Shown: positions 3,110 through 60,473 of the stretch, in pieces
How the letters are laid out: each line of letters begins with the position of its first letter
How positions within the stretch are numbered: position 1 is the first letter of the stretch
Origin: a virus
Lineage: Duplodnaviria > Heunggongvirae > Uroviricota > Caudoviricetes
DNA length: 64,000 nt
Direction: 5' to 3' (one strand)
IMG/VR virus record: IMGVR_UViG_3300021387_000285
The notes under the pieces: generated by a model
Told to the model about the DNA's origin: nothing
The model's database searches: none
What the model saw: the letters and a program-made list of their open reading frames with translations, nothing else
Made by a program: the position numbers and the translations under genes

Positions 3110-3535
3110 ATGAAGTTTGAATAGGTATCTACTTATCCTTATGCAAAACTGCCCGAACGTGCTACAGCAGGTTCCGCAGGCTATGACTTTTATTGTGCCG
3201 CGCATACTGTAGTCAATCCTCATAGTATTGCTTTAATTCCAACAGGAACAAAAGCACAGATTGATGATGGCTATTGGCTTATGCTCGCAATTCGTAGTTC
3301 TACTCCTAAAAAGAAATCTTTGATGCTCGCTAATGGTATTGGGGTTATTGATGCTGATTATTACGATAATCCAGATAACGAAGGACATATTATGTTCCAA
3401 GTTTATAATTTCTCTGATGAACCAGTAGCAGTATATAAAGATGATAAAATTGGGCAGGGTATTTTTATGCCTTACTCTACTACTGGTGATGTAGTGACTA
3501 CTGTGCGCGAAGGCGGCTTTGGTAGTACCTCTTGA
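3110..3535 (+). CDS. dut: dUTP diphosphatase (dUTPase) with 1 in-frame TAG at codon 5.
   Basis: MKFE(TAG)VSTYPYAKLPERATAGSAGYDFY...IGVIDADY.. carries trimeric-dUTPase motifs. It ends in TGA. Confidence 0.8.
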
Positions 3536-7222: not shown

Positions 7223-8125
7223 TTAAGTTGTTCGTAAATCACCAGTACATTTTCCTGCACAACTTCCTCCACAAGCCCCTGTACATCCTAAACAAGTACC
7301 ATGACAAGTACCTACACATCCACTTGAACAAGACCCTTTGCATCCTCCAGAACATGGAGTACAAGTACCTTTACAAGTACTCATACATCCTTCTTCACAC
7401 TAGGTATCACACTAACCACTACATGTAAACGTACAATCATTCTTACAATAATCTTTACAAGTACCACCACAGCCATTAGTACAATCACTACCACAACCAC
7501 TACTGCATGCATTTCCACATCCACTACATCCATCATTACAACCACTACTACATGCATCTCCACAACCAGTACAAGTTCCAGTACAGCCTAAACAAGTCAT
7601 ATTACAAACCCAATTACAGTCATCTTGGCATGCATATGTGCAACCTGTTGCACAACTTCCAGTACATCCAGTACACCCAGAACATCCACCAGTGCATCCA
7701 GTACATCCTAAACAAGTACCTTTACAATCTCCAGTACAGCCAGAACAAGTACTTGTACAATCTCCAGTACAACTCGTACATAAACCAGTACAAGAACTAT
7801 TACAAGCAGAATTATTTGTTTCTCCACTTGGCTAACGATATGGTCGCGATGCATAATCATTATTGGCTATCTATAATTTAATTAGTGCTTTAATAATATC
7901 ATACTAAGCAACTTCTGAATAGTCTGTTATACTAGTATTTATCTAATTTAAAGGATGTATTAAATTATTCCAAATATTAGGGATAATTTCATCTTCTTTA
8001 ATAGCATTTATTGTATTATCAAAGGTAAAAGTATATTTATCTCGTCTCTATAACTCAGTATTTATAGCAGCTCGTAAATCATTTATTTCACTTGCTACTA
8101 TTTTATCATATTGATTTAATCCCAT
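7223..8125 (-). CDS. Cysteine-repeat (CXXX/CXX) protein, 300 aa, with 6 in-frame TAG. It has an N-terminal ~100-aa Cys-free domain and a C-terminal ~200 aa of C-x2-3-C repeats (about 50 Cys).
   Basis: ATG at 8125 with a GGAAAGGAG RBS. The translation ..CTGLCTSCTGDCTSTCSGCTGDCKGTCLGCTGC.. runs to TAA at 7223-7225. Track ORFs 7412-7600(-), 7381-7563(-) and 7507-7881(+) are fragments or antisense of it. Confidence 0.7.
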
Positions 8126-11230: not shown

Positions 11231-11983
11231 ATGCCAGTACATGATGCATTAGGTACACGAATGAAAGAGTACGAATCTAGGAATCAGTATTATCTTCAAA
11301 AACGTACTCCAGTAGCAATACGTATTGATGGTCGCGCATTTCATTCATTTACTAAAGAACTTAACAGACCATTTGATAATGTTTTTCAAACATCTATGAT
11401 TCAAACAATGGAAACACTTTGCGGGGAAGTTCAGAATTGTATTTTTGGGTATACGCAATCTGATGAAATTACTTTAATTTTAAAAGATTATAATCAATTA
11501 AATACTTCGGCATGGTTTGATTATAGGACAGATAAATTATGTAGTATTTCTGCTAGTTTAGCAACATATTATTTTAATAAATATTTTAAAGAAAATGCAG
11601 AAAAAGTTATTTGGGCCAATCCAAATAATAGTTATTCATCAACTCTTGCTAAATGCTTGAATAAACCTGCTATTTTTGATGCCCGTTGTTTTAATATTCC
11701 AAAAGAAGAAGTAGTTAATCTTATCTATTGGAGACAGTTAGATGCGGTCCGCAATTCAATTCTCTCATGCGGTCAAGCAGAATTTTCTCACAAAGAGCTT
11801 ATGAATAAATCTTGTAAAGAGATTAAAACAATGCTTGAAGATATCGGCAAATCTTGGGATAAAATTCCTATCCACAAGCAGCGTGGAACCGCATGTACAA
11901 GAGTTGAAGGAACTTGGATTACTGATTATGCGATGCCTATTCTTCTTAAAGAAGATAGAGCTTATTTGGAAGAATTGATTTAA
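11231..11983 (+). CDS. Thg1-like protein (tRNA-His guanylyltransferase family, 3'-5' polymerase). TAG-free.
   Basis: IRIDGRAFHSF, GYTQSDEITLIL and YWRQLDAV match Thg1 motifs VRLDGRNFHRF, AYGQSDEYSFVF and SWRQADCH. Confidence 0.8.
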   Translation: MPVHDALGTRMKEYESRNQYYLQKRTPVAIRIDGRAFHSFTKELNRPFDNVFQTSMIQTMETLCGEVQNCIFGYTQSDEITLILKDYNQLNTSAWFDYRTDKLCSISASLATYYFNKYFKENAEKVIWANPNNSYSSTLAKCLNKPAIFDARCFNIPKEEVVNLIYWRQLDAVRNSILSCGQAEFSHKELMNKSCKEIKTMLEDIGKSWDKIPIHKQRGTACTRVEGTWITDYAMPILLKEDRAYLEELI

Positions 11984-12438
11984 TGGAAAAATACAAAGAT
12001 TTAGTTCATTACGATCGTGACAAAGAAGAATATTATATTGATTATCCTATAGGAAATCAAACATTTCACATGGGTTTTCAAAAGTGTGAAGTTGATTCTT
12101 TTATTGATAATGGAACAGTATATTTTAATGTTTGGATAAATCTATATAATAAACGTAAAGACATGTGGCGTAATGAAGATTTACTTTTATCTACTGGATT
12201 GAACCCAATTAAAACAGTTCTTGTTGCGCGAGAATGTTTTAAAGCAATTGAAGCAGAAATTATTGAAGATATGGAATATAATAATAAAGATGTAATTATT
12301 TATTGCCATTGGGTAAATAATCGTAGACGAGATGCTTATTATAAAGTTCTCTCACGAATGGGATATAGATATGGAAGAATCCCATTGCATCCTTATAAGG
12401 TAATTATGAAGAGGTATAAAAATAATGAAAATAAATGA
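11983..12438 (+). CDS. Hypothetical protein.
   Basis: ORF from the track with an ATG/TAA overlap to the upstream gene. Confidence 0.4.
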   Translation: MEKYKDLVHYDRDKEEYYIDYPIGNQTFHMGFQKCEVDSFIDNGTVYFNVWINLYNKRKDMWRNEDLLLSTGLNPIKTVLVARECFKAIEAEIIEDMEYNNKDVIIYCHWVNNRRRDAYYKVLSRMGYRYGRIPLHPYKVIMKRYKNNENK

Positions 12439-13436: not shown

Positions 13437-14243
13437 ATGAGTAAATTTTATGGAAATTATTCAGGTCGCTTTGGTGACCACTTTAAAGAATGCAAAGAAT
13501 ATTTTAAAGAATCAGAAATTGTAATGCTTGCTCTTACTGGAAGCCAAAACTATGGGCTTGATACAAAAGATAGCGATATAGATACTAAGCTTACTGTTCT
13601 TCCTTGTAAAGAAGATATTTTCTTTAATAAGCCAGCAGTATCAACAACTCATATTAGGGATAATGAAGAGCATATTGACTTTAAAGATATCCGTTTAATG
13701 CTGCCTACATTGCTTAAGCAGAATGTTAATTATCTTGAGCAACTTTTCTCTACTCAGTATCTTATTAATGAAGATTATAGTCATGAGATAGAATCTCTTC
13801 TTGATATCAGAGAAGATATTGCAAGATTCTATCCACATAAGTGTATTATGACAATGTATGGAATTGCAATGGGAAAAAAGAATAGAATCTTTAGAGAACT
13901 TCCAGAAAAGAAAGATATCTTTACATATGGATATAATCCAAAAGAAGCAATGCAGCTTTTCCGTATTGAAGAGTTTTTGCACCGATATATAAATGAAGAA
14001 CCATTTGAAGATTGTCTAAAATCTCAGCAAAGGGAACATTTATTGCTGGTTAAAAGTGGCGTTTATGATTCTCATGAAATGGTAGATATGGTAAATGCGG
14101 CAATCGCGCACGTTGAAGAAATGAAAGAAGATTATTTTGCGACTCATGAAGAAACATATAAACCTGGGGTACAGATTGTAATTTATGATGTTCAAAAAAG
14201 AATTATGGAGAAATATTTAAAAAATGTCTTTAATAATAGATGA
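13437..14243 (+). CDS. Minimal nucleotidyltransferase (Pol-beta superfamily) domain protein.
   Basis: ALTGSQNYGLDTKDSDIDT matches the GSxxxGxxxxxSDxD NTase signature. Confidence 0.6.
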   Translation: MSKFYGNYSGRFGDHFKECKEYFKESEIVMLALTGSQNYGLDTKDSDIDTKLTVLPCKEDIFFNKPAVSTTHIRDNEEHIDFKDIRLMLPTLLKQNVNYLEQLFSTQYLINEDYSHEIESLLDIREDIARFYPHKCIMTMYGIAMGKKNRIFRELPEKKDIFTYGYNPKEAMQLFRIEEFLHRYINEEPFEDCLKSQQREHLLLVKSGVYDSHEMVDMVNAAIAHVEEMKEDYFATHEETYKPGVQIVIYDVQKRIMEKYLKNVFNNR

Positions 14244-14899: not shown

Positions 14900-15712
14900 A
14901 TGAAGTTCTTTATTACAGGGGACTGTCATGGTGAATTTGCACGCTTTAATGCCCCTCCAAAAGATGAAGAGTTAGGAGTAATTATTCTTGGCGATGCAGG
15001 ATTTAATTTTTATCTTAATAAAACAGATGAAAGAAAAAAGGAAGAACTTTGTACCAACCATCCTAATATGACTATATATTGCGTGCGCGGCAACCATGAA
15101 GCAAGACCTCAAGATATTGATACTATGACTACAGTATTTGATGCAACAGTTCATGGAGTAGTTTACATGGAGCCACAGTATCCTAATATCCATTATTTTC
15201 TTGATTATGGATTTTATGATATTGGTGGATATAATTGTCTTGTAATAGGCGGCGCATATTCTGTTGATAAAAAATGGCGACTGATAAGAAATGGAATGAC
15301 AGAAGAAACTAACAATCCTAAAAAAACAGGATGGTTTGCTAATGAACAACTTACTAAAGAAGAAATGGAAGATTGTTATGAACTAGTAAAAAACTTTAAC
15401 AAACCTGTAGATTTTGTCTTTACTCATACTTGTCCAACAAAATTTCAACCTACAGATATGTTCCTTCATGGAATAGACCAATCTCAAGTAGACAACTCTA
15501 TGGAAGAGTTTCTAGAAGATGTAAGTTATCAAATGGGTTGGAATATTTGGTGTTTTGGGCATTATCATGCCGACCGCATTGAACGCCCGCACGTTGAACA
15601 ATATTATAGAGATATAGAAGAGCTAGATGAAGTATATAACAGATGGAAAAATTATGATAAAACACATGAGCTTCCTTGGCATCTTGTGAAAGGACCAATG
15701 TTTGATGCATGA
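14900..15712 (+). CDS. Calcineurin-like metallophosphoesterase.
   Basis: GDCHG, GDAG and GNHE motifs. Confidence 0.7.
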   Translation: MKFFITGDCHGEFARFNAPPKDEELGVIILGDAGFNFYLNKTDERKKEELCTNHPNMTIYCVRGNHEARPQDIDTMTTVFDATVHGVVYMEPQYPNIHYFLDYGFYDIGGYNCLVIGGAYSVDKKWRLIRNGMTEETNNPKKTGWFANEQLTKEEMEDCYELVKNFNKPVDFVFTHTCPTKFQPTDMFLHGIDQSQVDNSMEEFLEDVSYQMGWNIWCFGHYHADRIERPHVEQYYRDIEELDEVYNRWKNYDKTHELPWHLVKGPMFDA

Positions 15713-15969: not shown

Positions 15970-16350
15970 ATGAATATTGAAAAATTACGGTCGCTTTCTC
16001 GTAAAAAATACCAACGAGCTATGAATCAACTTGTACGCAAAATTAACAAATCCCTTAAAGATGATTGGCTTTGGGATGGAAGATTTACACTCAAACAGCA
16101 ATCTGCCTATTTTTGGTCCTATGAAGATCATAGTGGTGGGCATTTTCTTGTTTGGTTAACTTTTGTTGATAATAAAACTAGCGCAGAAGAATATATGGAT
16201 TTTGATAATTATGGCACAGAATATAATATAATGCGTTGGATAAATACTTGCATTACTGAATACTTTGATGTTTGGAAAGAAAATCCTAATCCATATAAAC
16301 AGGCAGAAATGGAGGGGAGGTATCCTGTGCCTCCTGAATCTATACTATAA
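15970..16350 (+). CDS. Hypothetical protein.
   Basis: ORF from the track preceded by an AAAGGAG RBS. Confidence 0.45.
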   Translation: MNIEKLRSLSRKKYQRAMNQLVRKINKSLKDDWLWDGRFTLKQQSAYFWSYEDHSGGHFLVWLTFVDNKTSAEEYMDFDNYGTEYNIMRWINTCITEYFDVWKENPNPYKQAEMEGRYPVPPESIL

Positions 16351-16964
16351 TGATTTTTTCAATTCTTATTCCAATTACTATTATTGGAGCAGGTCTGATT
16401 ATAACCTTAATAGACCAAAAAGTTGCATATTTAAATAGCATAAGAGAAAGATATAATTTAGAACTTAAAACTATTTGGTGCCCTTATCAATCTTTTGCTG
16501 ATGCTACCGAGGCTAAAGCTTATCAACAAAAAGTTATAGAAATGCCACAACTTACTTTTGATAGATGGTTAACTTTTTATAATAATAAACCAGAATGTTG
16601 GGTTATTCAAAAAGATCAATGGAAAAGTTTTGCTGATATTCCCTATTATGTTAAAATAAATGAACATGAAGATAGAAAAGGCAGAATAAAAAGAACTTTC
16701 TCTTTTGTCCCTACCTATTGGATAAGTCCAGAAGAAAAACAGAAATATAGAGAGTGGGTAGAGACTCAATATGAGTATGGCAAAGCGCAAATTTATGAAA
16801 ATGCGCGAAATGCCAAGCTCAAAGAACTCGCGGGATATATTGAAGAAGATATTAACGAACGTCGCAAAGTATTTGAAAAGGAGCTTGAAAAAGCAAAATC
16901 AGATATGACTTTGCAATTAAGTGATGGGACAAAAGTAGTAATACCGCAACCTACTAAAAAATAG
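16350..16964 (+). CDS. Hypothetical protein with an N-terminal TM helix.
   Basis: ORF from the track. Confidence 0.45.
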   Translation: MIFSILIPITIIGAGLIITLIDQKVAYLNSIRERYNLELKTIWCPYQSFADATEAKAYQQKVIEMPQLTFDRWLTFYNNKPECWVIQKDQWKSFADIPYYVKINEHEDRKGRIKRTFSFVPTYWISPEEKQKYREWVETQYEYGKAQIYENARNAKLKELAGYIEEDINERRKVFEKELEKAKSDMTLQLSDGTKVVIPQPTKK

Positions 16965-16974
16965 GAGTAAAATT

Positions 16975-19963: not shown

Positions 19964-21199
19964 ATGCTTAATAAAAATCAAGAACGAGAACTGGCATATG
20001 TTGTAGTTATAGATGAAATACGAGAGATTCCTGGCTATGATAGAGTAGAGCATGCGCGAACCGGTGGTTGGTGGTGTATTGTTCCTAAAGGACAGTTTCA
20101 TGTAGGAGATGCAGCAATCTATTTTGAAATTGATAGTAAAGTTCCTTCAACCAACCCAGCATTCGCTTTCCTTGAAAAACGTAATTATAAAATAAAAACT
20201 CAGAAGATGTGTAAGGTACTCAGCCAGGGACTTATTATGCACGCAGAAGATTTTGGATGGAAAGCGTATCAAGCTGGAGAAACTGGTTATAATGAACCAG
20301 CTTGTATTATGGATGATAATAATGCTTGTCATTATGTAGATACAGAATCCCGTTTCCTTACTAAAATTCTCGGTGTAACTTATGCGGATGAAGAAGATAA
20401 TAATCGTAAAGCTAATTCTGTAGACAAATATAAAAAGATGGCACAGCGACATCCTGCAATTTTTCGCAAACCTTTTGTGCGTTGGCTTATGAAGCGCACT
20501 TGGGGTAAGAAACTTATGTTCTTGTTTTTTGGAAAGAAAAAAGATAAGAAGAATAGCTGGCCAGAATGGGTTACTAAAACTGATGAAGAGCGCATTCAAA
20601 ACATGCCTTGGATTCTTGAAGATAATGGAGAATGGGTCGTCACTGAAAAGATAGATGGCAGCTCTACTACCTTTACGATGAAACGTGGAAAACATAATAA
20701 ATATGAGTTCTATGTATGCTCCCGTAATGTATGTTTTGACAGTGTAGATAAACGCTGCTATTATGATACTAACATTTATTGGGAAATGGCTGAAAAATAT
20801 GATATGTATAATATGTTGCTTGCTTTTCTGCTTGGACGGCCAGATGTTGAGTGGGTAACTATACAAGGAGAAACTTTCGGCGCAGGTGTGCAAAAACGTG
20901 ATTACTCTCTTGAAGGCCATGATTTCAGAGCATTTAATCTTATTACTTCTGATAGAGGTCGTTGGGGAACTCTTGAAATGAAAGAACTCCTTGAAAAGCA
21001 TTATAATATTCCCTGCGTGCCTGTTGTTCTTCCTAACTTTAAATTTGAAGGACTTGATGTAGATAAACTCCTTACTTTTGCAGAAGGAAACTCTATGATT
21101 GATGATAAGCCTCGTGAAGGTTTTGTTTTCCGTTCTAAAGATGGACAGCGTTCTTTTAAAGCAGTAAGTAATGCTTTTCTACTTAAATATCATATGTAA
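19964..21199 (+). CDS. ATP-dependent RNA ligase-like nucleotidyltransferase (Rnl family) with an N-terminal extra domain.
   Basis: KIDGSS (motif I, KxDGxx), EGFVFR (motif IV) and ..FLLKY (motif V). Confidence 0.55.
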   Translation: MLNKNQERELAYVVVIDEIREIPGYDRVEHARTGGWWCIVPKGQFHVGDAAIYFEIDSKVPSTNPAFAFLEKRNYKIKTQKMCKVLSQGLIMHAEDFGWKAYQAGETGYNEPACIMDDNNACHYVDTESRFLTKILGVTYADEEDNNRKANSVDKYKKMAQRHPAIFRKPFVRWLMKRTWGKKLMFLFFGKKKDKKNSWPEWVTKTDEERIQNMPWILEDNGEWVVTEKIDGSSTTFTMKRGKHNKYEFYVCSRNVCFDSVDKRCYYDTNIYWEMAEKYDMYNMLLAFLLGRPDVEWVTIQGETFGAGVQKRDYSLEGHDFRAFNLITSDRGRWGTLEMKELLEKHYNIPCVPVVLPNFKFEGLDVDKLLTFAEGNSMIDDKPREGFVFRSKDGQRSFKAVSNAFLLKYHM

Positions 21200-24433: not shown

Positions 24434-24694
24434 ATGAAAAACTATGAATTACATAATTTTTATTGTATGAATTGTGGGCGTGAAGCTATTCCTATTCAGA
24501 GACAAATAAGTCATAAACATAGCAAACATCATCGTAAAGTTCTTTATTGTCCTTGGTGCAAACAAACTGTTAATCATATTGAATGTAGAACTAGTGAAGA
24601 AGTTTTAGAGTTTAAAGAAAATTTTGAAAAGGGGTTGTATAAAGATGAGTGCAAAGACTCTTTGGATTATGGTAGGATGTCCTGGCGCGGGTAA
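24434..24694 (+). CDS. Zinc-ribbon small protein.
   Basis: CMNCG...CPWCK. Confidence 0.4.
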   Translation: MKNYELHNFYCMNCGREAIPIQRQISHKHSKHHRKVLYCPWCKQTVNHIECRTSEEVLEFKENFEKGLYKDECKDSLDYGRMSWRG

Positions 24695-25139
24695 AAGTTA
24701 CTTCGCAAAAAATCATCTTATAAGAAATAATTTATGGAAATATGTCTCTCGTGATGAAATTAGATTTGCACTTTTAAACAGCGGAGATGAATATTTTAGT
24801 AAAGAGCGACAGGTTTTTAAAGAATTCTGTGAAAAAATTAGCATTAATCTATTAGATAATATTCATACAGATGTAATTGCTGATGCAACTCATTTAAATG
24901 AAAAAAGTCGTAATAAATTATTATATAACTTAAAAAATTATGGAATTGACTTTACTAAAATAGATGTAATTCCAGTTTATGTAAAGGCTTCTTTTGCCAC
25001 TATCCAACAGAGAAATAGCGAAAGAGAAGGACGTGCGCGAGTTCCTTATCATAACCTATGTGATATGTATGATGCTCTACAGCACCCTAATGAAGATAAT
25101 TTTAAATATACCGCAATATTGGAGGTTGATAATTCATGA
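24645..25139 (+). CDS. Polynucleotide 5'-kinase (T4 Pnk kinase-domain-like P-loop kinase).
   Basis: WIMVGCPGAGKSYFAKN...RDEIRF closely parallels T4 Pnk LTIGCPGSGKSTWA...RDDYRQ. Confidence 0.65.
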   Translation: MSAKTLWIMVGCPGAGKSYFAKNHLIRNNLWKYVSRDEIRFALLNSGDEYFSKERQVFKEFCEKISINLLDNIHTDVIADATHLNEKSRNKLLYNLKNYGIDFTKIDVIPVYVKASFATIQQRNSEREGRARVPYHNLCDMYDALQHPNEDNFKYTAILEVDNS

Positions 25140-26169: not shown

Positions 26170-26198
26170 TTGATTTTTTTATATTTTTATGGTATAAT
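26170..26198 (+). promoter_or_regulatory. Sigma-A-type promoter, TTGATT-N17-TGgTATAAT.
   Basis: Member of the promoter family. An AAGGAG RBS follows. Confidence 0.6.
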
Positions 26199-26715: not shown

Positions 26716-26985
26716 GTGGTTATTATTCTTATATATGTATTATTAGGAATATTTATCTACGTAGTCGCTGTTCCAATAGCTGAAGGATTGGTAAATATTA
26801 TATTGCAATAGTTTGAAATAATTAAAGGCAAACAACTAGTGCATATAACAAAAATCCAAAAAGAAGTTACTGATTTAAGCGGTGAAGAAGAAGAATTACC
26901 GCAAACTAAAGTTATTGGCTTTGCTTTACCAGATGATGAAGAAGAAATCTATGAAGAAGAGGAAGACGACGATTATGGTGATTGA
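26716..26985 (+). CDS. Small membrane protein with an acidic C-terminal tail; 1 in-frame TAG.
   Basis: TM helix VIILIYVLLGIFIYVVAV then a poly-Glu/Asp tail. GTG start is uncertain. Confidence 0.35.
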
Positions 26986-28228
26986 CTATAAGTTTTATGA
27001 TACTTGTTCTTTATTATTAAAAGCAGGTACCTTATTTGATAATAACGAACCCTTTGCTATTTCATCAATTACATTAAATGAATTAGAAGATATAAAAACT
27101 TCTCCATATAAAGATGCTGAACAAAAGTATGCGGCCCGCAAATTGCTTCATACATTAAAAGAGCATAGAGGAGAATATGATGTCCATATCTTTATAGAAG
27201 ATATGCTACAACCTATTATTGATAAACATTTAACTATAACCAATGATACAAAAATCTTGGCGACTGCAATTAATTATGATAATACTGTTCATCCAGATGA
27301 AACAATATTTGTTACTGACGATAATAGTTTGTTTGAAATTGCTAATTTATTTTTTGGTGAAGATTCTATAGAAAGTGTTGGCGAAGAAGAAATAGACCAT
27401 TATTAGGGGTATTTAGATTTAACACTTAATGAATCTGAAATGGAATAGTTTTATTAGAATTGGCAATAGAATATTTATAATTTATTGCCTAATTAGTATT
27501 TAGTAATTAGAAGTTAGCAAAATGAAATAGTAGATAGATTATGCTATACTGGCACAGAATATCGTCCTATTAGTTTTGAAAGTTTTGATTCTAAACATTT
27601 TGGAGTTATTAAACCAATAGATGTTTAGTAGTAGTTTGTCGCAGATAGCTTAACTCATAACCAATTAACTATGATAAAAGGTCCTGCAGGCTCTGGTAAA
27701 ACATTGCTCGCATTTGGATTTTTGTTCCAGTAGTTAGAAAGACATAAAATAGATAAAATAATTATTTTCTGTAATACTGTTGCTGCAAAGAACGCGGCAA
27801 GGCTTGGTTATTTACCAGGAAGCAGAGAAGAAAAATTGCTAGACTCATAGATTGGTAATGTTTTAATTAGTAAACTAGGTAGCCGTTTAGAAGTTGAAAG
27901 GTTACTTGATGAAGAAAAATTAATTTTATTACCAATGAGTGATATTCGTGGTTATGATACAACAGGCTTGCGCGCAGGTATTTATTTTTCAGAAGCATAG
28001 AATCTTGATATTTCTTTAATGAAATTAGGATTATAGCGCATTGGAGAAGATAGTATTTGCATTATTGATGGTGATGAAAAAACATAGGTAGATGATATTA
28101 GTTTCGCTGGTGCTAATAATGGTATGCGGCGTGCTTCAAAAGTATTTAGGGGTTCTACTATTTATGGAGAAATTGAACTGAAAGAAATACATCGTTCAAC
28201 TATTGGAAAAATTGCAGAAAAAATGTAA
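26975..28228 (+). CDS. phoH: PIN-PhoH fusion (PhoH2/YlaK-like ATPase). The PIN domain (144 codons) is TAG-free and the PhoH part carries 14 in-frame TAG.
   Basis: GPAGSGKTLLA Walker A motif. DGDEKT(TAG)VDD aligns to the invariant PhoH GDxxQxDL, so TAG stands where Gln is expected. The track ORF 26882-27406 is its N-terminal fragment. Confidence 0.75.
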
Positions 28229-28229
28229 A

Positions 28230-28257
28230 AGGACTGATTTATTCAGTCCTTTTTTTA
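28230..28257 (+). terminator. Rho-independent terminator.
   Basis: AGGACTGA..TCAGTCCT stem followed by T7. Confidence 0.7.
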
Positions 28258-28274
28258 TAGAAGGAGGAGTCTAA

Positions 28275-29666
28275 ATGGCAAAAAACAAATATACGTTAAA
28301 GGCTGCCCCTCAATCACAGGGAAAAGTAGTTTTTAATACACCAATTGATTTTCAAGAACAAGAACAAAATTTTGAACCCGAACTTAACCCAGATTTTATC
28401 GTTGAAAATATAAAACCTGATATCCCAGCACCAACAGAAGAAGAAATATAGCAGTCTATTCCTATTGCGCCTATGGCTTAGGAAAAGAATTATTTAAGTC
28501 GTGGAGATACCGGTTATGCAGTTCAACAATTACAACAGAAGTTAATTAAAGCTGGTTATTCTGTTGGTATTGATGGGGCTGATGGAGATTTTGGTGGAAA
28601 TACTTTAGACGCTGTTATTAAATTTTAGAAAGAAAATCGCTTAACAGTTGATGGTTTAGTTGGAGAAAAAACACTCGCTAAATTAGATGAAGTTGTTTCT
28701 AAAAAATCTATTCAAATCTATCGTATTCGCAAGAATTGGTATGAACCAAAAACACAAATTGGCGCATATAATGATTTAGATAAAGCTATTGAAGCATATA
28801 ATAAATTACCAGATGGATATTATGTTTATAATAATTCTGGTAAGATTGTTTATCCAGAGGGGATACTCCAAGAGAAGAAATCTAGTGAGTTTAAACCTAT
28901 TGTGCGGCCGGCAAGATCTTACAATGATGTGGCTCTTGGTATGGCTGCTAAAGATGAAAACTGCGGGTATCGTAATGGTCTTGCAGGAGACCAATCTGGT
29001 AGTGAAGTATATATTTTAAATACTTGGTATGATTAGAGTTGGACGAATGTATTGCGTCCAGTAGATAATCAGTTAGCAGAAAAAATCGCTCAAGCAATGG
29101 AAGCAGCCTGTGAAAATAATTACATTGGATATGACCAAAATCAAAGAAATACTTTATACACAGAAGCTAAAAAAGTTGGAATGGATTTATCTAAAATCAC
29201 TACACCATGCGAATGTGATTGTAGCTCATTAGTTAGTATTTGCTGCATTTGCGCTGGATTACCTGAAAACATTTTCTTTGCTGGTGGGAATATGAGAACT
29301 ACATTTAATATGGAAGAAGCTTGCTTAAAGACTGGTAAGTTTATCAATTATGTAGATGCAAAATATACTAGACAGAAGGATTACTTAAAACGTGGTGATA
29401 TTTTAAATAATCGTAATCAACACGTTGTTGTTGTTTTAGGGAATGGTCGCTATGCTGAACAAACTGCTGATGTAAGTGCTATGAACTATAAAGTAAAAGT
29501 ATTGCCTATTTTATTAAATGTGCGCAATGCTCCTAATGGGAATGCACCAGTTGTAGGCAGATTAAGATAGAATGATACTTATACTATTGTTGAAGTCCAA
29601 GACGGTTGGGGTAAATTAAAATCTGGCGCCGGTTGGATTAACTTAGAGTTTGTTGAAAAAATATAA
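28275..29666 (+). CDS. Endolysin with an N-terminal PG_binding_1-like domain, a central Cys-containing hydrolase or amidase domain and a C-terminal SH3b domain; 5 in-frame TAG.
   Basis: GDTGYAVQQLQQKLIKAGYSVGIDGADGDFGGNTLDAV (peptidoglycan-binding). C-terminal YKVKVLP...GWGKLKSGAGWINLEFV (SH3b). GGAGGAG RBS upstream. Confidence 0.75.
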
Positions 29667-29977
29667 TGGAAACTGAAAAAAAGAAAATAGAGTTTTCAAA
29701 AACTCTATTAATTCAAGAATCTATCTTAATTTGGATACATACGATTGCCTTATTGGTATTAGCTTATATCTGTGTATTTAAAGGATTTTTTGCAGAATTA
29801 CCTTGGTTAACTGCTATGACAGCATTACCATGGACCGCTTATGGAGTTAGTCAACATGCTTATTATAAAAAGTCATAGGCAGAAAACTCTAAAGATGGTA
29901 TTGTATATGAATGCGCTATGTATGATAAGCAAATGTTAGATTATGACCCAAAAGATGATTCTATTGCTATTGGTTAA
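29666..29977 (+). CDS. Holin candidate with 2 TM helices; 1 in-frame TAG in the C-terminal tail.
   Basis: TAATG-coupled to the endolysin. TM helices ILIWIHTIALLVLAYICVF and LPWLTAMTALPWTAYGV. A terminator follows. Confidence 0.6.
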
Positions 29978-29987
29978 TATATAATAA

Positions 29988-30034
29988 AATCCCAAGATAT
30001 AATAATTTTTTTATTATTCTTGGGATTATTTTTA
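29988..30034 (+). terminator. Rho-independent terminator.
   Basis: AATCCCAAGA..TCTTGGGATT stem followed by a T-run. Confidence 0.7.
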
Positions 30035-30038
30035 TTAT

Positions 30039-30067
30039 ATTGATTTTTTATTTATTTTATGTTATAA
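30039..30067 (+). promoter_or_regulatory. Sigma-A-type promoter.
   Basis: TTGATT-N17-TGtTATAAT. Confidence 0.55.
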
Positions 30068-30160
30068 TGTATTTGTGAATGAAATAACTGAATGGCTTTC
30101 TTTCTTTCTTCTGTTATTATTATAACCTAATTTTTTTTATTTGTCAAGGAGAAACGTTTT

Positions 30161-30613
30161 ATGGGAAAGACTTATTACACAGATGGGGCTTGTTCTGGCA
30201 ATGGGTATAAACATTCATCTGGTGGATATGGTATTGTTGAAGTAGATGAAAATGATAATATAATTTGGGCATACCAAGATTTCAAAAAACCAACTACAAA
30301 TAATGAAATGGAACTAATGGCTATATTAAAAGCCTTAATTCATATACAAAATAATAACGAAGAAGATTTTTTTATCCCAATCATTTATAGTGATAGTGCT
30401 TATTGTGTTAATATAGTCAATGATTGGATGTATAGTTGGGAGCGCAATAATTGGATGCGACCAAATAACCAAGAGATTAAAAACCTTGAAATTATAAAAC
30501 AAATATATAAATTAGCACATATTGCTGATATCCGTAAAATTAAGGGTCATGCTGGTCATAAATGGAATGAGTATGCTGATAATTTAGCAACTGGAAAAAT
30601 TAAATTAACATAG
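30161..30613 (+). CDS. rnhA: Ribonuclease HI.
   Basis: YTDGAC...E..A...AL...IYSDS.Y..N....W..W...N.W....IKGHAGH.WNE.AD.LA follows the RNase H pattern. Confidence 0.8.
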   Translation: MGKTYYTDGACSGNGYKHSSGGYGIVEVDENDNIIWAYQDFKKPTTNNEMELMAILKALIHIQNNNEEDFFIPIIYSDSAYCVNIVNDWMYSWERNNWMRPNNQEIKNLEIIKQIYKLAHIADIRKIKGHAGHKWNEYADNLATGKIKLT

Positions 30614-30627
30614 GAGGAATATTAACG

Positions 30628-30837
30628 ATGGCTTTTAAACCGTATAAAATGATAACAAAATGTGAGATTTTAGATGAAGATTGGAAAACTCAATTAGCAT
30701 TAGGATATCCTTGTATTCCACCAGAGACAGAAGTACTTGTAACTGGGACTTATAATAATTTCTATGGGACTTTTGCTAAAGTTCAATGGAATGGGAATGT
30801 TTATTATACTACATTTAATAAATTAAAGAAAGGTTGA
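30628..30837 (+). CDS. Hypothetical small protein.
   Basis: ORF from the track. Confidence 0.4.
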   Translation: MAFKPYKMITKCEILDEDWKTQLALGYPCIPPETEVLVTGTYNNFYGTFAKVQWNGNVYYTTFNKLKKG

Positions 30838-31160
30838 TAGATATGCTGAATGAATTAGTGGCTAATTATTTTTATGGTAAATGCCCTGTCTGCGGCAGAT
30901 TGTATATTTCAGCTTTTGAACGTTTTGTAACTTGGTGCCCTTATTGTGGAACAGCTACTCTTACTGATAATAGCTCTACAAATGGAAGATTAACTGAAAG
31001 AGATGACCAAGGGATTGCACGTTATGTTGGTAATTTATCTCATCATAAACCAGAGTATGCTCATCAACTAACTAGAAATGCAGTAGAAGAAATCTTAGAA
31101 AAACTTTGTGTATATGAGGAAAATGAGGCTGCAGAAAACAAGACAGAAGAAGACGGTTGA
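30834..31160 (+). CDS. Zinc-ribbon protein.
   Basis: CPVCG...CPYCG. Confidence 0.4.
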   Translation: MIDMLNELVANYFYGKCPVCGRLYISAFERFVTWCPYCGTATLTDNSSTNGRLTERDDQGIARYVGNLSHHKPEYAHQLTRNAVEEILEKLCVYEENEAAENKTEEDG

Positions 31161-31185
31161 TTTTTTTAAAAAAATATGGTATAAT
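31157..31185 (+). promoter_or_regulatory. Sigma-A-type promoter.
   Basis: TTGATT-N17-TGgTATAAT. Confidence 0.6.
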
Positions 31186-31219
31186 ATAATGTAAAGAAAA
31201 AATCTAGGAGATTTGATTT

Positions 31220-33151
31220 ATGATAGATAAAACATTATATAATGAAGAATCAATTGAAAGTTTGTCTCCATTAGAGTTTACTAGATTGCGCCCAGGAGTC
31301 TATGCAGGTGATACAACTTATGCAACTCAATTAGCAGTGGAAATCTTTTCTAATGCAGTTGATGAATTTAGACTCGGCCATGGAGATAAAATTGAAGTAA
31401 GTATTAATGGCCCAAAAGTAAGAGTTAGAGACTATGGACAAGGTTTTATTCCAAATAGTTTTCGTGATGATAATAAAACAATCTTAGAAGCAGCTTTTAG
31501 TGTATTAAATACATCTGGTAAATACCGTGAAGATGGAACATATGAAGGCACTTCTCTCGGTTCATTTGGTATTGGTTCAAAAATTACAACTTATCTTTCA
31601 CATTGGTTAGATGCTACTACTTTCCGTAATGGGGAGTGGGAAACTGTTCATTTTGTTGAAGGCGAAACTTATAGCCATGACGGAGGAAAAATTGATCCTG
31701 CCGACATGGGAATTAGTAAAGATACTACTGGCACTATTGTTGAATGGGAGCCAAGTGAAGAATTTTTTACTCATCCAGAAGTAAATGTAAATGAATTGAA
31801 AACTCTCTTTAAAACAATCGCTGCGCTCTGTCCTGGTCTTACCATTGAGCTAAATGATAATTGGACTAAAACTACTTATTTTTCAAAGAATGGTATTAAT
31901 GACTTAGTTGATGAAGCAGTTGAAAATAAAGAACTGATTAAAAATCGTTTCGTAATGAATTATCAAAATGATAAGAATAAACTTGATATGGTTATGACAT
32001 ATACGTCAAATTATTCTTCAACATTAGTTCCTTATGTAAACACTGGTTTGACAGCAAATGGGCCGCATATTTCACAAGTTAAAGCATTGTTAACTCGTGA
32101 GTTTAATAAGTTTTTTAGAGATAAAAAATGGCTTAAAGATAAAGATGAAAATCTTTCTGGTGATGATGTCCAAGAAGGATTATACATTGTATTTAATATA
32201 ACTGCACCAAATGTAGCTTATGATGCTCAAGTGAAAACAAGAGTTACTAAAATTGAAATGAGTCCTTTCACTCAAGCTATTGCAGAAGATTTGCGGATTT
32301 GGTTTGCGGCAAATGAAAAAGAAGTTAAAATGATTGCTGATAAAGCAATTAATGCGCGAAAAGCTCGGCTGGCCGCGCAGAAAGCAAGAGAAGCAGTTCG
32401 TGACAAAGGACCAAAAACACCAAAAGCAAAAATGTTAAATCTTCCAACAAAATTAGTTGATTGTTGGGGAAAAGACCGTAGTAAGTGTGAACTGTTTATT
32501 GCCGAGGGTGATAGTGCAGCAAATGGACTTGTTGAAGCAAGAGATGCAGAATATGTAGCAGTATTTCCAATCCGAGGAAAAATTATTGCCGCATATAAAA
32601 ATAGTAGCGAAAAGATATTTGCCAATGCAGAAGTAACAAATATCATTAAAGCTATTGGCCTTGATTTAGATATTAAGACTCATAAATTAATTTATGATGC
32701 TAAAAAAATAAGGTATGGAAAGATTCTACTTGCGGCTGATGCTGACCCTGATGGAGCTTCAATTCGTAACTTGTTAATTGAAATGTTTTGGTGGTTATGT
32801 CCAGAACTTATTTTAAACGGACATATTTATACAACAATTCCGCCACTTTTTAGAATAACTACTAAAAAGAATGAATATATATATTTAAAAGACCAAATAG
32901 CATTAGATGAATATAAAACGAAACATGCTGGAGAAAAGTTTTTAATAAATAGAAATAAAGGTCTTGGTGAACAAGATGCAGATGAATTACATGAAGCATT
33001 ATTGAATCCAGAGACTCGTAATGTAGAACAATTGGTTATTGAAGATAAAGCAGCAACAGAAGATTTAATTGAATGTTTGATGGGACCAAGTGTCCCGCCA
33101 CGTAGAGCATATTTGTTAAAGCATAGCGAGGAGGCTAATGATAATGATTAA
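31220..33151 (+). CDS. Type IIA DNA topoisomerase, ATPase/Toprim (GyrB/T4 gp39-like) subunit. TAG-free.
   Basis: GHKL ATPase region and Toprim motif IAEGDSAANG. Confidence 0.8.
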   Translation: MIDKTLYNEESIESLSPLEFTRLRPGVYAGDTTYATQLAVEIFSNAVDEFRLGHGDKIEVSINGPKVRVRDYGQGFIPNSFRDDNKTILEAAFSVLNTSGKYREDGTYEGTSLGSFGIGSKITTYLSHWLDATTFRNGEWETVHFVEGETYSHDGGKIDPADMGISKDTTGTIVEWEPSEEFFTHPEVNVNELKTLFKTIAALCPGLTIELNDNWTKTTYFSKNGINDLVDEAVENKELIKNRFVMNYQNDKNKLDMVMTYTSNYSSTLVPYVNTGLTANGPHISQVKALLTREFNKFFRDKKWLKDKDENLSGDDVQEGLYIVFNITAPNVAYDAQVKTRVTKIEMSPFTQAIAEDLRIWFAANEKEVKMIADKAINARKARLAAQKAREAVRDKGPKTPKAKMLNLPTKLVDCWGKDRSKCELFIAEGDSAANGLVEARDAEYVAVFPIRGKIIAAYKNSSEKIFANAEVTNIIKAIGLDLDIKTHKLIYDAKKIRYGKILLAADADPDGASIRNLLIEMFWWLCPELILNGHIYTTIPPLFRITTKKNEYIYLKDQIALDEYKTKHAGEKFLINRNKGLGEQDADELHEALLNPETRNVEQLVIEDKAATEDLIECLMGPSVPPRRAYLLKHSEEANDND

Positions 33152-35492
33152 TATAAATCAAGAATTACATCAAAACTTTTTGGACTTCTCATATGAAGCT
33201 AACTCGCAACGTGCTTTTGCAGATGCACGAGATGGCCTAAAACCAGGACAGAGAGCATGTCTTTGGGAAATGTATGATAAAAAATATAGCAGTAATAAAC
33301 CACATGTAAAATCTGCAAAAATTAGTGGTGGAGTTATTGCTAACTGGTGGCCTCATGGTGATGCTGCAATATATGATACTTTTGCTCGTATGTCTCAACC
33401 TTGGATTAATAATATTCCAGAAGTTGACTGGCATGGTGCAAATGGTTCTATTCAAATTAGTGGAGAGCCTGCGGCCAGCCGATACACTGAAGCAAGATTA
33501 GCCAAGAGTACAGAAGATGGATTGCTTTTTAATATTAATAAACATACTGTACCAATGAAAATGAACTTTTCAGAAGATGCAGAATGGCCGGAGGTATTTC
33601 CTGCGATTTATCCTCGGTTGATGGTAAATGGATGTCAAGGCATTGGTTCTACAATTGCAAATGTATGGCTACCGCATAATCTCGGTGAGCTAATTGGTAT
33701 GATTGACAATTATCTTACTACTGGTAAATTAGATTATAGTAATTTAGCACCAGATTTTCCAACAGGTGGAATTATTATTAATCGTAATGAGCTTAAAGCA
33801 ATTTATGAAACTGGTAAAGGGAAAGTAGTTCTTCGTGCGCGAACCGAAATTAAAGATAATACAATTATTGTTACCGAGGTCCCTTATCAAGTTTATATTG
33901 AGCCATTAATTGATCAAATTAAAAAATTAGTTATTGATGAAACAATTCCAGACATAAATAATATCGTTAATAAGAGTGGTCGCAATAAACTTTGTATTGA
34001 AATAGAATGCGAAAAAGATCCTGCAAGAGTATTGAGTTTATTATTTAAAAATAGCGATTTACAGAAAAGTTATAGTGCAAATCAGTTTGCTTTAATTGGT
34101 AAAACCCCAGAACTTCTTACTTTGAAAAAGTATTTAGATGTATTTATCAATCATAATGTTACTTGTATTGATAATGAATATAAATATGAAGTAGAAAAAG
34201 CAAAAGATAGATTAGAAATTGTAGAAGGTCTATTAAAAGCACTTGAAGATATTGATAATGTAATTGCTCTTATTAAATCAAGTGATAGTTCTGCTGATGC
34301 GGTCCGTAGATTAATGGCAAAATATAGTTTATCTGAACGGCAAAGTAAGGCTATTGTTGATATGAAACTGGGTCGTTTGGCTAAATTAGAAAAAATTGAA
34401 TTAGAGCAAGAAAAGGCTGAATTAAATAATAAGATTACTGAATGTTTAGCAGTTCTTGAGGATAATAATAAAAAGAAAAATATTTTTCTTGATAGACTTC
34501 GTGCTTTTGGGAAAAAATATGCAATTCCTCGTAAAACAGAGTTGTAGCATATTGAATTAGGAAAGACTAAAGAAGAAAAAGAAATTGCTGAAATTCCTCC
34601 TGAGAAATGTGTTGTCGTAATTACAAAAGGAGAAAGTTTAAAGCGTATTCCAGCAACCGCTTTCCGCACACAAAGGCGCGGAGGAAAAGGCGTAAAAACT
34701 CAAGATGATATTACAGAAGCCGTAATTAGAACAAATACAATTGATAGTTTAATGTTGTTTACTAATCAAGGTAAGATGTATAGATTATTAGTAAATAACA
34801 TTCCAGAAGGAACGAATACTTCAAAAGGCACTCCTGTAAAAACTTTAATAGAAATGGAGGCAAATGAACATGTACAGACTATATATTCTATATATAGAGA
34901 TACTGATGCAAAATATGTATTATTCGTTACTAAAAAAGGCTTGGTTAAGAAAACGGCGCTTACTGAATATGTTGGAACAAAGAAAACTAAAGGGATTGGT
35001 GCGATTGCTATTAAAGAAGGAGACGCGCTCGCTGCCGTCACTTTGGTAAAAGATGAGCCATTGATTCTTTTAACTAAACAAGGATATGTGATTAAGTTTA
35101 AGATTGATGAAGTATCTACAACATCTCGTCTTACATCTGGTGTTAAAGGAATTAACTTAGGAGATGATGATGAAGTAGTTGCGGCTTTACCTTTAAGAAA
35201 CAGTGAAGACCAGTTAGCTATCTTTACTACAAAAGGTAATGGTAAAAAGATTTCTCAAAAAGAAATTACTTTACAAAAACGTGGCGGAAAAGGTTTAATG
35301 ATTCTTAAATCTGGAATTAAAGATGAATATGTGAGTGCAGCACAACTTATTAGTGATGAAGATAATGTCCTTTTAGTAGGAGATAAAAACTCTGTATGTA
35401 TTGCTGCAACTGATATTCCAGAATTAGGTCGTCAATCTATTGGAAATATAATGCTTAAAAATAATAAGATTTTAAGTGCAAGTAAAGTTTAA
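33138..35492 (+). CDS. Type IIA DNA topoisomerase, GyrA-like breakage-reunion subunit with a C-terminal beta-pinwheel; 1 in-frame TAG at 34545-34547.
   Basis: Joins track ORFs 33138-34547 and 34752-35492 in the same frame. The C-terminal part contains the GyrA-box-like QRRGGKG. Confidence 0.8.
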
Positions 35493-35785: not shown

Positions 35786-36835
35786 TTAAGGTTCTGTTGG
35801 CTCAGTAGGTTCTGAAGATGAATGATAAGATTCTAATAATTCAATACGATTTGTTATTCCATTTAAACTATCGCTCATGTCACCAATAGTATCATCAATA
35901 GTGTTATACTTAGTTTCTAAAGTAGTAATCTTACTATTTATAGTTGATAACTAAGATCCATATTGCATAAGATTATCCTATAAATTTGAAGTAGTAGCTA
36001 TATATGATGCTAGATCTAACATATTATAGAAATAAAAAACTATATTTTTAGTTTTATCATAAATAATGTATAATTCATCATATATTAATTTAATATTATT
36101 TATTATATACTCTTCAAATGTACTTTCTGGATTATCAATTTCAAACTATGTTGTTAAATCATTATAATTTGAACTAAATTTTAATGCACTTATTTGTGTA
36201 TAATTATTATTATTTAATAAATTAGTAACTATAAAATTACCATAATTACCCTATAGTATAATAATTTTATTTAAATAAAAATTTTCAATAATAGCATCAA
36301 TAAGCTCATGATTAGTTGTATTAAAAGAACTATTGCCAAAATTATTTAAATTACCATATTCATTAGAAGTAACATCTATATAAATTACTTCTGCTTTTCT
36401 ATTCTATAGTTTTTCTAAAGTATTATAATTAGATGTAACATTCTATCCAAGAATCTAATTTTTAACATTCAAAATTGCTTCATCAACAGTATCTCCTAAT
36501 TCACTTTGAATTGTTGCAGATAAATCTGGGCGATCAGGTAAATCATAATAGCTCCCTGATAATGCTACATTAGATAACTACGGTGTATTTTTTAGATCTC
36601 CATAGTCTCCTGTTAAAGCTACATCAGCAAGCTATGGAGTATTTTTTAATTTAGTATAATCTCCCGAGAAAGCAACATTATGTAGATCTGCAATTTTTGT
36701 GTATGTAGTACCAATAATTTCATTTATTCTAGCATTTAAATCACTAGTTGAAATTGTAGTAGTAGAAGTAATATAACCGCCGTTTATATTATTTATAATA
36801 AAGTTTTTTAATCCAGTTGTATAAGTATCTGCCAT
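35786..36835 (-). CDS. Tail-fibre-repeat protein with 9 in-frame TAG.
   Basis: Tandem SGDYTKLKNTPQL / TGDYGDLKNTPQL / SGSYYDLPDRPDL motifs of the phage tail-fibre-repeat type. GAAAGGAG RBS before the ATG at 36835. The track ORF 36632-36859(-) is its N-terminal fragment. Confidence 0.6.
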
Positions 36836-36920
36836 AAAAGTTAAACTCCTTTCTCTCATAATTGTTATTTCTATATAAATTAGAAAAATACTTCCTCATT
36901 ATTATTTTAATTTGTCCAAT

Positions 36921-55242: not shown

Positions 55243-55836
55243 ATGAATGATTATAATATTATTGCGATAATGGGAAAAGCTGGTTCTGGAAAAGATACTC
55301 TATTAAAAGCTTTACTTCAAGAATTGACTTTTACTAATATTGCGCGACCTATTATTAGTTGTACGACTCGTCCTATTAGAGAAGGAGAAGTTGATGGAGT
55401 TGATTACCATTATCTTACAAAAGAACAATTTACTGATTAGGTTCTTAATGGAGATATGTTAGAAGCAACAGTTTTTAATAGCTGGTGTTATGGTACATCT
55501 TTAACTAATCTTTCATAGAACCATTTAAATATTGGAGTATTTAATCCAGAAGGCGTAGAAATACTTCGTGATAATAACCATATAAATCTATTTGTAATTT
55601 ATATACAAGCAGATGATAAAACAAGATTATTAAGATAGCTGAATAGAGAAGGTAATCCAGACTGTCATGAAATAGTTAGACGATTTGGAACTGACGAAAC
55701 AGATTTTAATGATGAAGTAATAGATTATATTCAACCTGACTTATATGTAGCCAATGGTGATGGTGTAGATATACATAATATCGCTAAATAGATTGCGGCC
55801 GCATGGGAGTCAGGGCAAATCTCATTAAAAAAATAA
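55243..55836 (+). CDS. gmk: Guanylate kinase with 4 in-frame TAG.
   Basis: GKAGSGKDTL and TTRPIREGEVDGVDYHYL. The track ORF is only the first 65 codons. Confidence 0.7.
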
Positions 55837-55902
55837 AAAGAAAAACTAAATATAATGATACCCTAGAGAAGACATTAACTATATTTAGTTGGAGGAATTA
55901 AA

Positions 55903-60270: not shown

Positions 60271-60466
60271 TATTTTAAAAGTTGATACTAATAAGATAGA
60301 TACAGATACAACATATAAAGTAGCTACACAATTACGTAAAGTCCTTAATGAAGAAGACGTTGTTCTAGTTCTACCTTATGGTATAGATGTATTATTAGAT
60401 GTTCCAATAGAAGAAATAATTTCTATTAGAGATAATTTAAATGAAATTATCAAATCAAGGAGTTAA
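60263..60466 (+). CDS. Hypothetical small protein.
   Basis: ORF from the track. Confidence 0.35.
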   Translation: MINILKVDTNKIDTDTTYKVATQLRKVLNEEDVVLVLPYGIDVLLDVPIEEIISIRDNLNEIIKSRS

Positions 60467-60473
60467 AATAAAA

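Follow-up and report, generated by a model that had tools for sequence, protein, structure and literature searches.

A recoded lysin-holin pair as part of a broader TAG-using gene class in a large tailed phage

Phages that read the TAG (amber) stop codon as glutamine (Gln; genetic code 15) are known among the crAss-like, Lak, Garnet, Amethyst, Jade and Sapphire phages. In crAss-like and Agate phages, recoding was found to be concentrated in lysis genes and was proposed to block premature lysis (Borges et al., bioRxiv 10.1101/2021.08.26.457843). Decoding of TAG as Gln has proteomic support (Peters et al., PMC9523058), and another TAG-recoded group associated with Bacillota, Phassvirus, has been described (PMC10607447). 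We analysed a lysis cassette, consisting of an endolysin gene and a putative holin gene, in a 64,000-nucleotide stretch of a Caudoviricetes phage (IMG/VR record IMGVR_UViG_3300021387_000285). This stretch, referred to here as the window, corresponds to about one third of a ~195-kb genome. As in the code 15 phages, TAG stands for Gln, replication genes keep the standard code, and lysis and tail-fibre-like open reading frames (ORFs) contain TAG. Unlike in those phages, the lysis genes have average or lower TAG rates; recoding also extends to genes for a radical-SAM enzyme, PhoH, NrdD and guanylate kinase; neither a suppressor tRNA nor a code-change module can be seen beside the lysis cassette; and the cassette stands alone between standard-code operons, bracketed by terminators. 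The genes of this phage fall into a TAG-free and a TAG-using class, with the lysis pair in the second. We consider it probable that recoding acts as a shared gate rather than as a lysis timer, and that the TAG at holin codon 71 (TAG71) is an ordinary Gln codon. The two genes are:

28275–29666, plus strand: endolysin gene, 463 codons when TAG is read through.
29666–29977, plus strand: putative holin gene, 103 codons; its start overlaps the lysin stop (TAATG), and a TAG (Gln) lies at 29876–29878.

The lysin frame contains five TAGs, at codons 59 (28449–51), 69 (28479–81), 118 (28626–28), 254 (29034–36) and 432 (29568–70), and ends with a TAA (29664–66) whose last base is the first base of the holin ATG (29666–68). 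An earlier sequence-only reading of the region had placed the first TAG at about codon 62, ahead of the catalytic domain; the order holds, and the codon is 59. By a base-composition estimate at 31.6% G+C, the probability that 463 consecutive codons lack TAA and TGA by chance is ~1e-12. With TAG translated as Gln, Pfam identifies PG_binding_1 (amino acids (aa) 80–137, 5e-16), ELLD (PF25309, aa 222–393, E = 1e-57) and SH3_3 (aa 414–459, 5e-7), and these domains are continuous over TAG118, TAG254 and TAG432, respectively. The ORF thus combines the wall-binding and hydrolase domains of an endolysin, and its PHROG matches are endolysins and amidases; the ELLD region, searched by sequence against the PDB, matched no solved structure. 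Because the Pfam domains run unbroken through the TAG positions, we conclude from the domain map that the lysin TAGs are translated codons. Since four of them precede or fall within ELLD, an ELLD-containing product cannot, on this map, be made without TAG read-through, which bears out the earlier claim that no active lysin is made without suppression. The TAG pattern recurs in independent assemblies (loci L085–L089). In a 98%-identical contig, lysin codon 59 encodes K rather than TAG, and the holin TAG71 is kept.

To assign the meaning of TAG, we aligned PhoH, the holin and RNase H to the orthologous proteins of two related contigs. Gln stands opposite TAG in 14 cases, the next commonest residues in 4 each, and the sites at which TAG pairs with Gln include motifs common to three orthologs, such as LLDSQIGN and LQRIGED. 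In 17 distinct relatives, holin site 71 carries CAA or CAG. Once TAG is opened, the summed length of plus-strand ORFs of at least 100 codons rises from 62% to 80% of the window, and the genes for NrdD, PhoH, guanylate kinase and the radical-SAM enzyme are intact only with TAG read-through. We conclude, on these alignments, that TAG is decoded as Gln here, as in genetic code 15. If the TAGs were instead real stops, leaving a lysin pseudogene or fragments and a 70-aa small protein followed by non-coding DNA, or if they were assembly errors, the domains would not be expected to continue over them, nor the pattern to recur in L085–L089. Standard-code ORF calling does break the region up, and one database entry (P0067) is the 70-aa form, but homologues in standard-code phages encode the same holin tail with sense codons, and TAG aligns with Gln genome-wide. 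We therefore regard real stops or errors as extremely improbable; a pseudogene and an assembly error were both rejected because domains cross the TAGs and independent assemblies agree.

We asked how TAG is distributed over a crude gene map of the window, which comprises 74 ORFs. TAG is used in 37 of them. By contrast, none of the Gln codons is TAG in the genes for Pol III alpha (0/51), DnaB (0/22), primase (0/17), NAD-ligase (0/17) and a GyrB-like protein (0/11); at a TAG share of 28%, the mean for TAG-using genes, the value for Pol III alpha would arise by chance with a probability of ~5e-8. Shares of 70–78% are seen in PhoH (14/20 Gln codons, 70%), the ORF at 35786–36859 (9/12) and the ORF at 7223–8125 (78%). 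The lysin (5/27, 19%) and the holin (1/4, 25%) lie at or below the mean, and we saw no preferential recoding of lysis genes relative to other genes in the window. Besides lysis genes and ORFs that look structural, the TAG-using class includes NrdD (7 TAGs), guanylate kinase (4), the radical-SAM enzyme (10), a GIY-YIG protein (12) and PhoH. The genes for guanylate kinase and NrdD (55243–58152 and 60441–61733) adjoin a TAG-free gene for a xanthine/uracil-type permease. Thus, the sequence-only proposal of a gate dedicated to lysis is not supported by the comparison with the other ORFs. Since the lysis genes are ordinary members of the recoded class, recoding would be only a permissive gate and not a lysis clock, and the window speaks against a general rule by which recoding is strongest in lysis genes.

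The existence of two classes bears on whether TAG is readable throughout infection. In the otherwise TAG-free class, the RNase H gene (30161–30625) and the ORF at 16350–16970 appear to end in a TAG with a TAA 1–3 codons further on, and the RNase H ortholog of the related locus L003 ends two residues short of the TAG position. At these ends TAG seems to serve as the terminator, with a second stop in reserve that works under either code, which fits a phase when TAG still terminates. Constitutive suppression, by a host that itself decodes TAG or by a suppressor available immediately on infection, would reduce the ambers to synonymous Gln codons with no temporal gate. Such a scheme would accommodate the lack of a visible suppressor gene or 'code-change module' in the window, the use of TAG by nucleotide-metabolism enzymes needed early or in mid infection, and the presence of TAGs in both the RNase H and the topoisomerase genes of the related locus L004. 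However, the complete lack of TAG in long replication genes is hard to explain without a TAG-unreadable phase, the backup stops point the same way, and phages of this kind have been reported on standard-code hosts (Borges et al.). We consider constitutive suppression unlikely.

The ORF downstream of the lysin has a single in-frame TAG, at codon 71, giving 70 aa if unsuppressed versus 103 aa if read through. This TAG and the TAATG overlap, both noted in the sequence-only reading, can be read directly from the DNA. A run of 33 stop-free codons past the TAG has a chance expectation of ~14%. The first transmembrane (TM) segment, TM1 (aa 20–38), has a mean Kyte–Doolittle value of 2.57; a second segment (aa 45–61) is uncharged and weakly hydrophobic; and the tail (aa 71–103) is acidic, with a net charge of -5. 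AlphaFold2, run with 45 sequences, models a helical hairpin (H2–39 and H42–74), with a predicted local distance difference test score (pLDDT) of 80–89 at residues 11–60 and 78 at residues 61–70, and a low-confidence tail. The idea that both TM helices lie upstream of the TAG is therefore upheld for TM1, which is strong, and by the modelled hairpin, and less so for the second segment, which is weakly hydrophobic and lies in a modelled helix spanning residues 42–74. By hydropathy and AlphaFold2, the protein has the attributes of a holin: small size, one or more TM helices and a C-terminus that is hydrophilic and charged. A fold search against the viral models of BFVD was uninformative.

A database search yielded at least 928 relatives of the putative holin, of about 91–127 aa. 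The family has no match to Pfam, NCBIfam or any annotated PHROG, and its weak matches are to PHROGs of unknown function alone; judged by these searches, it is both unannotated and widespread. We inspected the gene neighbourhoods of homologues in 10 diverse IMG/VR loci. In all 10, the ORF that ends at the homologue start is a peptidoglycan hydrolase, with CHAP, ELLD, Amidase_2 or Amidase_3 as the catalytic type; one additionally has Phage_lysozyme2, and one matched PG_binding_1 only. In GenBank, Dulem virus 33 encodes a 107-aa homologue that overlaps the end of a PGRP amidase gene, and in MT838639 the gene for a 95-aa homologue precedes a 63-aa ORF that contains a hydrophobic stretch, behind which lies a 216-aa putative lysin ORF. 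Because a two-helix membrane hairpin is predicted and the family consistently adjoins endolysins of differing types, the small ORF is very probably a holin, as had been supposed. It resembles the class II holins of Gram-positive phages (two TM helices, N-in/C-in) and S21 of phage 21 in being a small helical hairpin with a hydrophilic, charged C-terminus and in having a gene that overlaps the endolysin gene. It differs from them in having no family match, in lying downstream rather than upstream of the lysin, in its acidic rather than basic tail, in its weakly hydrophobic second helix and in the lack of a dual-start motif; no motif of this kind, which could supply an antiholin, was seen in the holin family.

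The tail includes a conserved motif, Q71–E82; alignments of 16 and of 45 family members show complete or at least 90% conservation of E73, N74, G78 and I79 within it. Therefore, the 103-aa form is the conserved product, and the 70-aa form lacks the conserved motif. Upstream of the holin start we found no Shine–Dalgarno sequence, either in the window or in four relatives, and a stop–start overlap with the lysin is kept as TAATG in the window and as ATGA in L003, L004 and L086. Translation of the holin is therefore likely to be coupled to that of the lysin, in which case the lysin ambers should be polar on the holin.

We propose that the TAG-free class can be translated by an unmodified host, whereas products of the TAG-using class would be completed only once amber suppression is active, from a source whose existence we presume. 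The lysin–holin pair belongs to the latter class. Without suppression, the lysin would be cut at codon 59; the holin, probably dependent on ribosomes that finish the lysin, would also be held down by the five lysin ambers, in addition to its own TAG71. That codon would be an ordinary, evolutionarily labile Gln codon at a tolerant site, and the selected product would be the full 103 aa. Recoding would then amount to a 'not before the code switch' gate common to many genes, as opposed to a lysis-specific timer, with the actual timing of lysis presumably left to the holin itself. A block on premature lysis through recoded lysis genes has already been put forward in print (Borges et al.).

If the stop at holin codon 71 were used for programmed read-through, it should be fixed in position among relatives. 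In an 84%-identical lineage, codon 71 is a Gln codon other than TAG, and TAG is found at 63 and 89. The L003 holin has GAA at 71 and TAG at 91, the L004 holin has TAG71, and in other relatives residue 71 is E, K, M, S or L, and the TAGs lie in TM1, in the loop or far down the tail. Over 66 distinct IMG/VR homologues, TAG occurs at positions 5, 25, 39/40, 63, 71 and 86–96. We also compared the number of holins with at least one TAG to that expected from the TAG share of each locus; across 53 recoded loci, 25 were observed and 25.4 expected, so holins show no TAG enrichment. In the full set of 114 distinct sequences, 19 have TAG at site 71, 17 have CAA/CAG and the rest another residue; for the closer relatives among metagenome loci, it is TAG in 19, CAA/CAG in 15 and another residue in the rest. 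Hence, no stop codon at a fixed position was found at holin 71. The state of the site never differs in pairs with at least 88% core identity, and in pairs with 80–88% core identity, 34 differ and 16 agree, the state being random at this distance. As with read-through of the Q-beta A1 type, one ORF could in principle give a short and a C-terminally extended product; unlike that type, in which stop and context are conserved and read-through is partial, TAG here alternates with CAA/CAG and serves as a general Gln codon. These alignments suggest that a tolerant site with free interchange of TAG and CAA/CAG is a better fit than a conserved regulatory stop.

The sequence-only reading had taken TAG71 for a two-tail device. 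In its strongest form, TAG71 would be a purpose-built switch that yields a 70-aa two-TM protein before suppression and a 103-aa protein with an acidic tail after it, the ratio of isoforms tuning lysis like a holin/antiholin pair. TAG does sit right behind the helical hairpin, and the lack of a dual-start motif means that no alternative source of an antiholin is apparent in the family. Moreover, TAG accounts for 19 of the 36 distinct sequences with Gln at site 71 (53%), compared with ~25% for the other variable Gln columns, a pooled value obtained by summing columns. The invariant holin columns Q17 (TAG in 1/114) and Q63 (17/114), at 1–15%, are also below site 71. However, columns 25, 40, 5, 89 and 91 have TAG shares of 47–100%, so site 71 is not unique; TAGs in TM1 (25), in the loop (40) or at Q63 would give truncations that are not equivalent; in many lineages residue 71 is E, K, M, S or L; and the differing pairs described above outnumber those that agree. 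The residues directly past the TAG are among the most conserved of the protein. In addition, little 70-aa product is expected without suppression, when the lysin aborts at codon 59 and the holin has no Shine–Dalgarno sequence of its own. Our literature search found no paper on such a two-isoform holin, which would make the mechanism new, but it is not supported here, and we judge a purpose-built switch quite improbable. A modest site-specific preference for TAG at holin 71 is possible, since the codon counts carry no phylogenetic correction.

Toggling between TAG and CAA/CAG at holin codon 71 could be used in evolution as a knob for lysis time, by way of less or later full-length holin or of some 70-aa product, on top of stacked control of the cassette by terminator read-through, amber polarity via coupling and an antisense-facing promoter; we regard this as a long shot. 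In another lineage (L009–L018, IMG/VR contigs of 39–132 kb), TAG makes up only 1–4% of Gln codons in the 10-kb locus, yet the holin homologue has a conserved TAG inside TM1, aligned with residue 25 of the window protein; preferential recoding of the holin could be genuine in that clade.

Some observations weigh against a code-switch gate with TAG71 as an ordinary codon. The TAG excess at site 71 over the pooled variable columns and over Q17 and Q63 is one of them. Another concerns timing: NrdD and guanylate kinase, both TAG-using, are expected to be active during replication, and the switch may thus come well before lysis. Recoding of these nucleotide-metabolism genes argues for such an early switch and, because the two enzymes are expected to act at that stage, we infer rather than observe that the TAG-using class is late. 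Finally, neither the window, the 7.6 kb past its 5' end nor about 50 related loci yielded a gene for a suppressor tRNA, a release factor or GlnRS. We searched for tRNAs and suppressors with ARAGORN in the window, in 48 related loci and in three loci that reach 7.6 kb past the 5' end, and with Rfam at gathering thresholds in the window; neither program identified a tRNA or Rfam family in the window. A pattern scan of IMG/VR for tRNAs with a CTA anticodon gave, among the matches listed, none on the contig of a known relative.

We then considered how the cassette is bounded and expressed. The relevant features, in addition to the two lysis genes, are:

26170–26198, plus strand: nearest upstream sigma-70-like promoter, TTGATT-17-TATAAT with a TG extension, one of 15 copies of a motif.
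26933–28228, plus strand: PIN + PhoH-like gene directly upstream of the lysin, with 14 in-frame TAGs (70% of Gln), all past codon 158.
28227–28258, plus strand: intrinsic-terminator-like hairpin with a U7 run between PhoH and lysin (dG -14.8 kcal/mol, z = -4.5).
28261–28267, plus strand: strong lysin Shine–Dalgarno sequence, AAGGAGG, a few bases past the U-run.
29988–30027, U-rich runs on both strands: hairpin terminator past the holin (dG -18.2 kcal/mol).
30040–30068, plus strand: sigma-70-like promoter of the TAG-free RNase H/topoisomerase operon.
30119–30147, minus strand: perfect-consensus promoter, TTGACA-17-TATAAT (12/12), which points back to the lysis cassette and faces the plus-strand promoter at 30040–30068.

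There is no room for a promoter between the U-run and the lysin Shine–Dalgarno sequence; the cassette would therefore be transcribed by read-through from upstream. The PhoH–lysin hairpin is kept with different stem sequences in L086 (about 1498–1525) and L003 (about 3486–3512), and is absent from L004, where PhoH runs straight into the lysin ribosome-binding site. A conserved intrinsic terminator that immediately precedes the lysis genes and is followed by no promoter is reminiscent of lambda, in which pR'-tR' with Q antitermination precedes S-R-Rz. Unlike for lambda, no antiterminator was identified here, and the likeness is one of sequence layout alone. The region can be described as a well-bounded lysis cassette of Gram-positive type in a large phage that reads TAG as Gln, and it adds a putative holin family. 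With a terminator, a lysin with a strong Shine–Dalgarno sequence, a probably coupled holin, a bidirectional terminator and face-to-face consensus promoters, it offers a test bed for the combination of code switching, termination and translational coupling against premature lysis.

The minus-strand promoter, which sits 140–170 nucleotides downstream of the holin, is the only full-consensus promoter on that strand in the 64 kb; a looser regular expression also matches 12032–12060. Within 320 nucleotides downstream of the holin, a minus-strand promoter with at least 11/12 consensus positions is present in 52 of 104 distinct related loci, 36 of them perfect. The downstream minus-strand promoter recurs in L006, L009–L017 and L020–L034. 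It might direct an antisense or small RNA, or cause transcription interference.

The promoter motif of the plus strand, TTGAYTTTTT...TATGnTATAAT and variants, occurs in 15 copies, all on that strand, at 2068, 4630, 15911, 18758, 22141, 23248, 26170, 30040, 31157, 36921, 38906, 39149, 40987, 43411 and 50884. Genes that come first behind the conserved promoters have no internal TAG in 11 of 14 cases. Operon-distal genes often use TAG, examples being the radical-SAM gene after 4630 and PhoH after 26170. By eye, we found no late-promoter motif shared by the regions upstream of TAG-rich operons and of the lysin. Without suppression, the PhoH gene would give a stand-alone PIN domain; we rejected PhoH as a programmed two-product gene, since its orthologs in L003 and L004 have TAGs within the PIN part.

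Pol III alpha is ~39% identical to its versions in Enterococcus and Bacillus phages, and related contigs reach 193–241 kb. A blastn search of positions 27000–31200 against GenBank phages gave no nucleotide match. The phage is large and probably has a Gram-positive (Bacillota) host; we infer the latter because the lysin architecture and the lack of a gene between holin and terminator fit such a host.

Elsewhere in the window, a TAG-free cluster of RNA/tRNA-repair type (11231–11983, 13437–14243, 14900–15712, 19964–21199 and 24645–25139) has as members a Thg1-like guanylyltransferase, RlaP, a metallophosphatase, an RNA ligase and an AAA_33 kinase-like protein, which suggests tRNA repair early in infection. 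The ORF at 7223–8125, on the minus strand, encodes 300 aa; its 7 TAGs make up 78% of the Gln codons, and it has a long repeat region of CTGxC type, rich in Cys, Gly, Thr and Ser. Lastly, a LAGLIDADG-type ORF splits the GyrA/topoisomerase-IV-A-like gene of the 98%-identical relative (L085, 13457–16743); the same gene in the window (33138–35492) is a single 784-codon ORF with one TAG.

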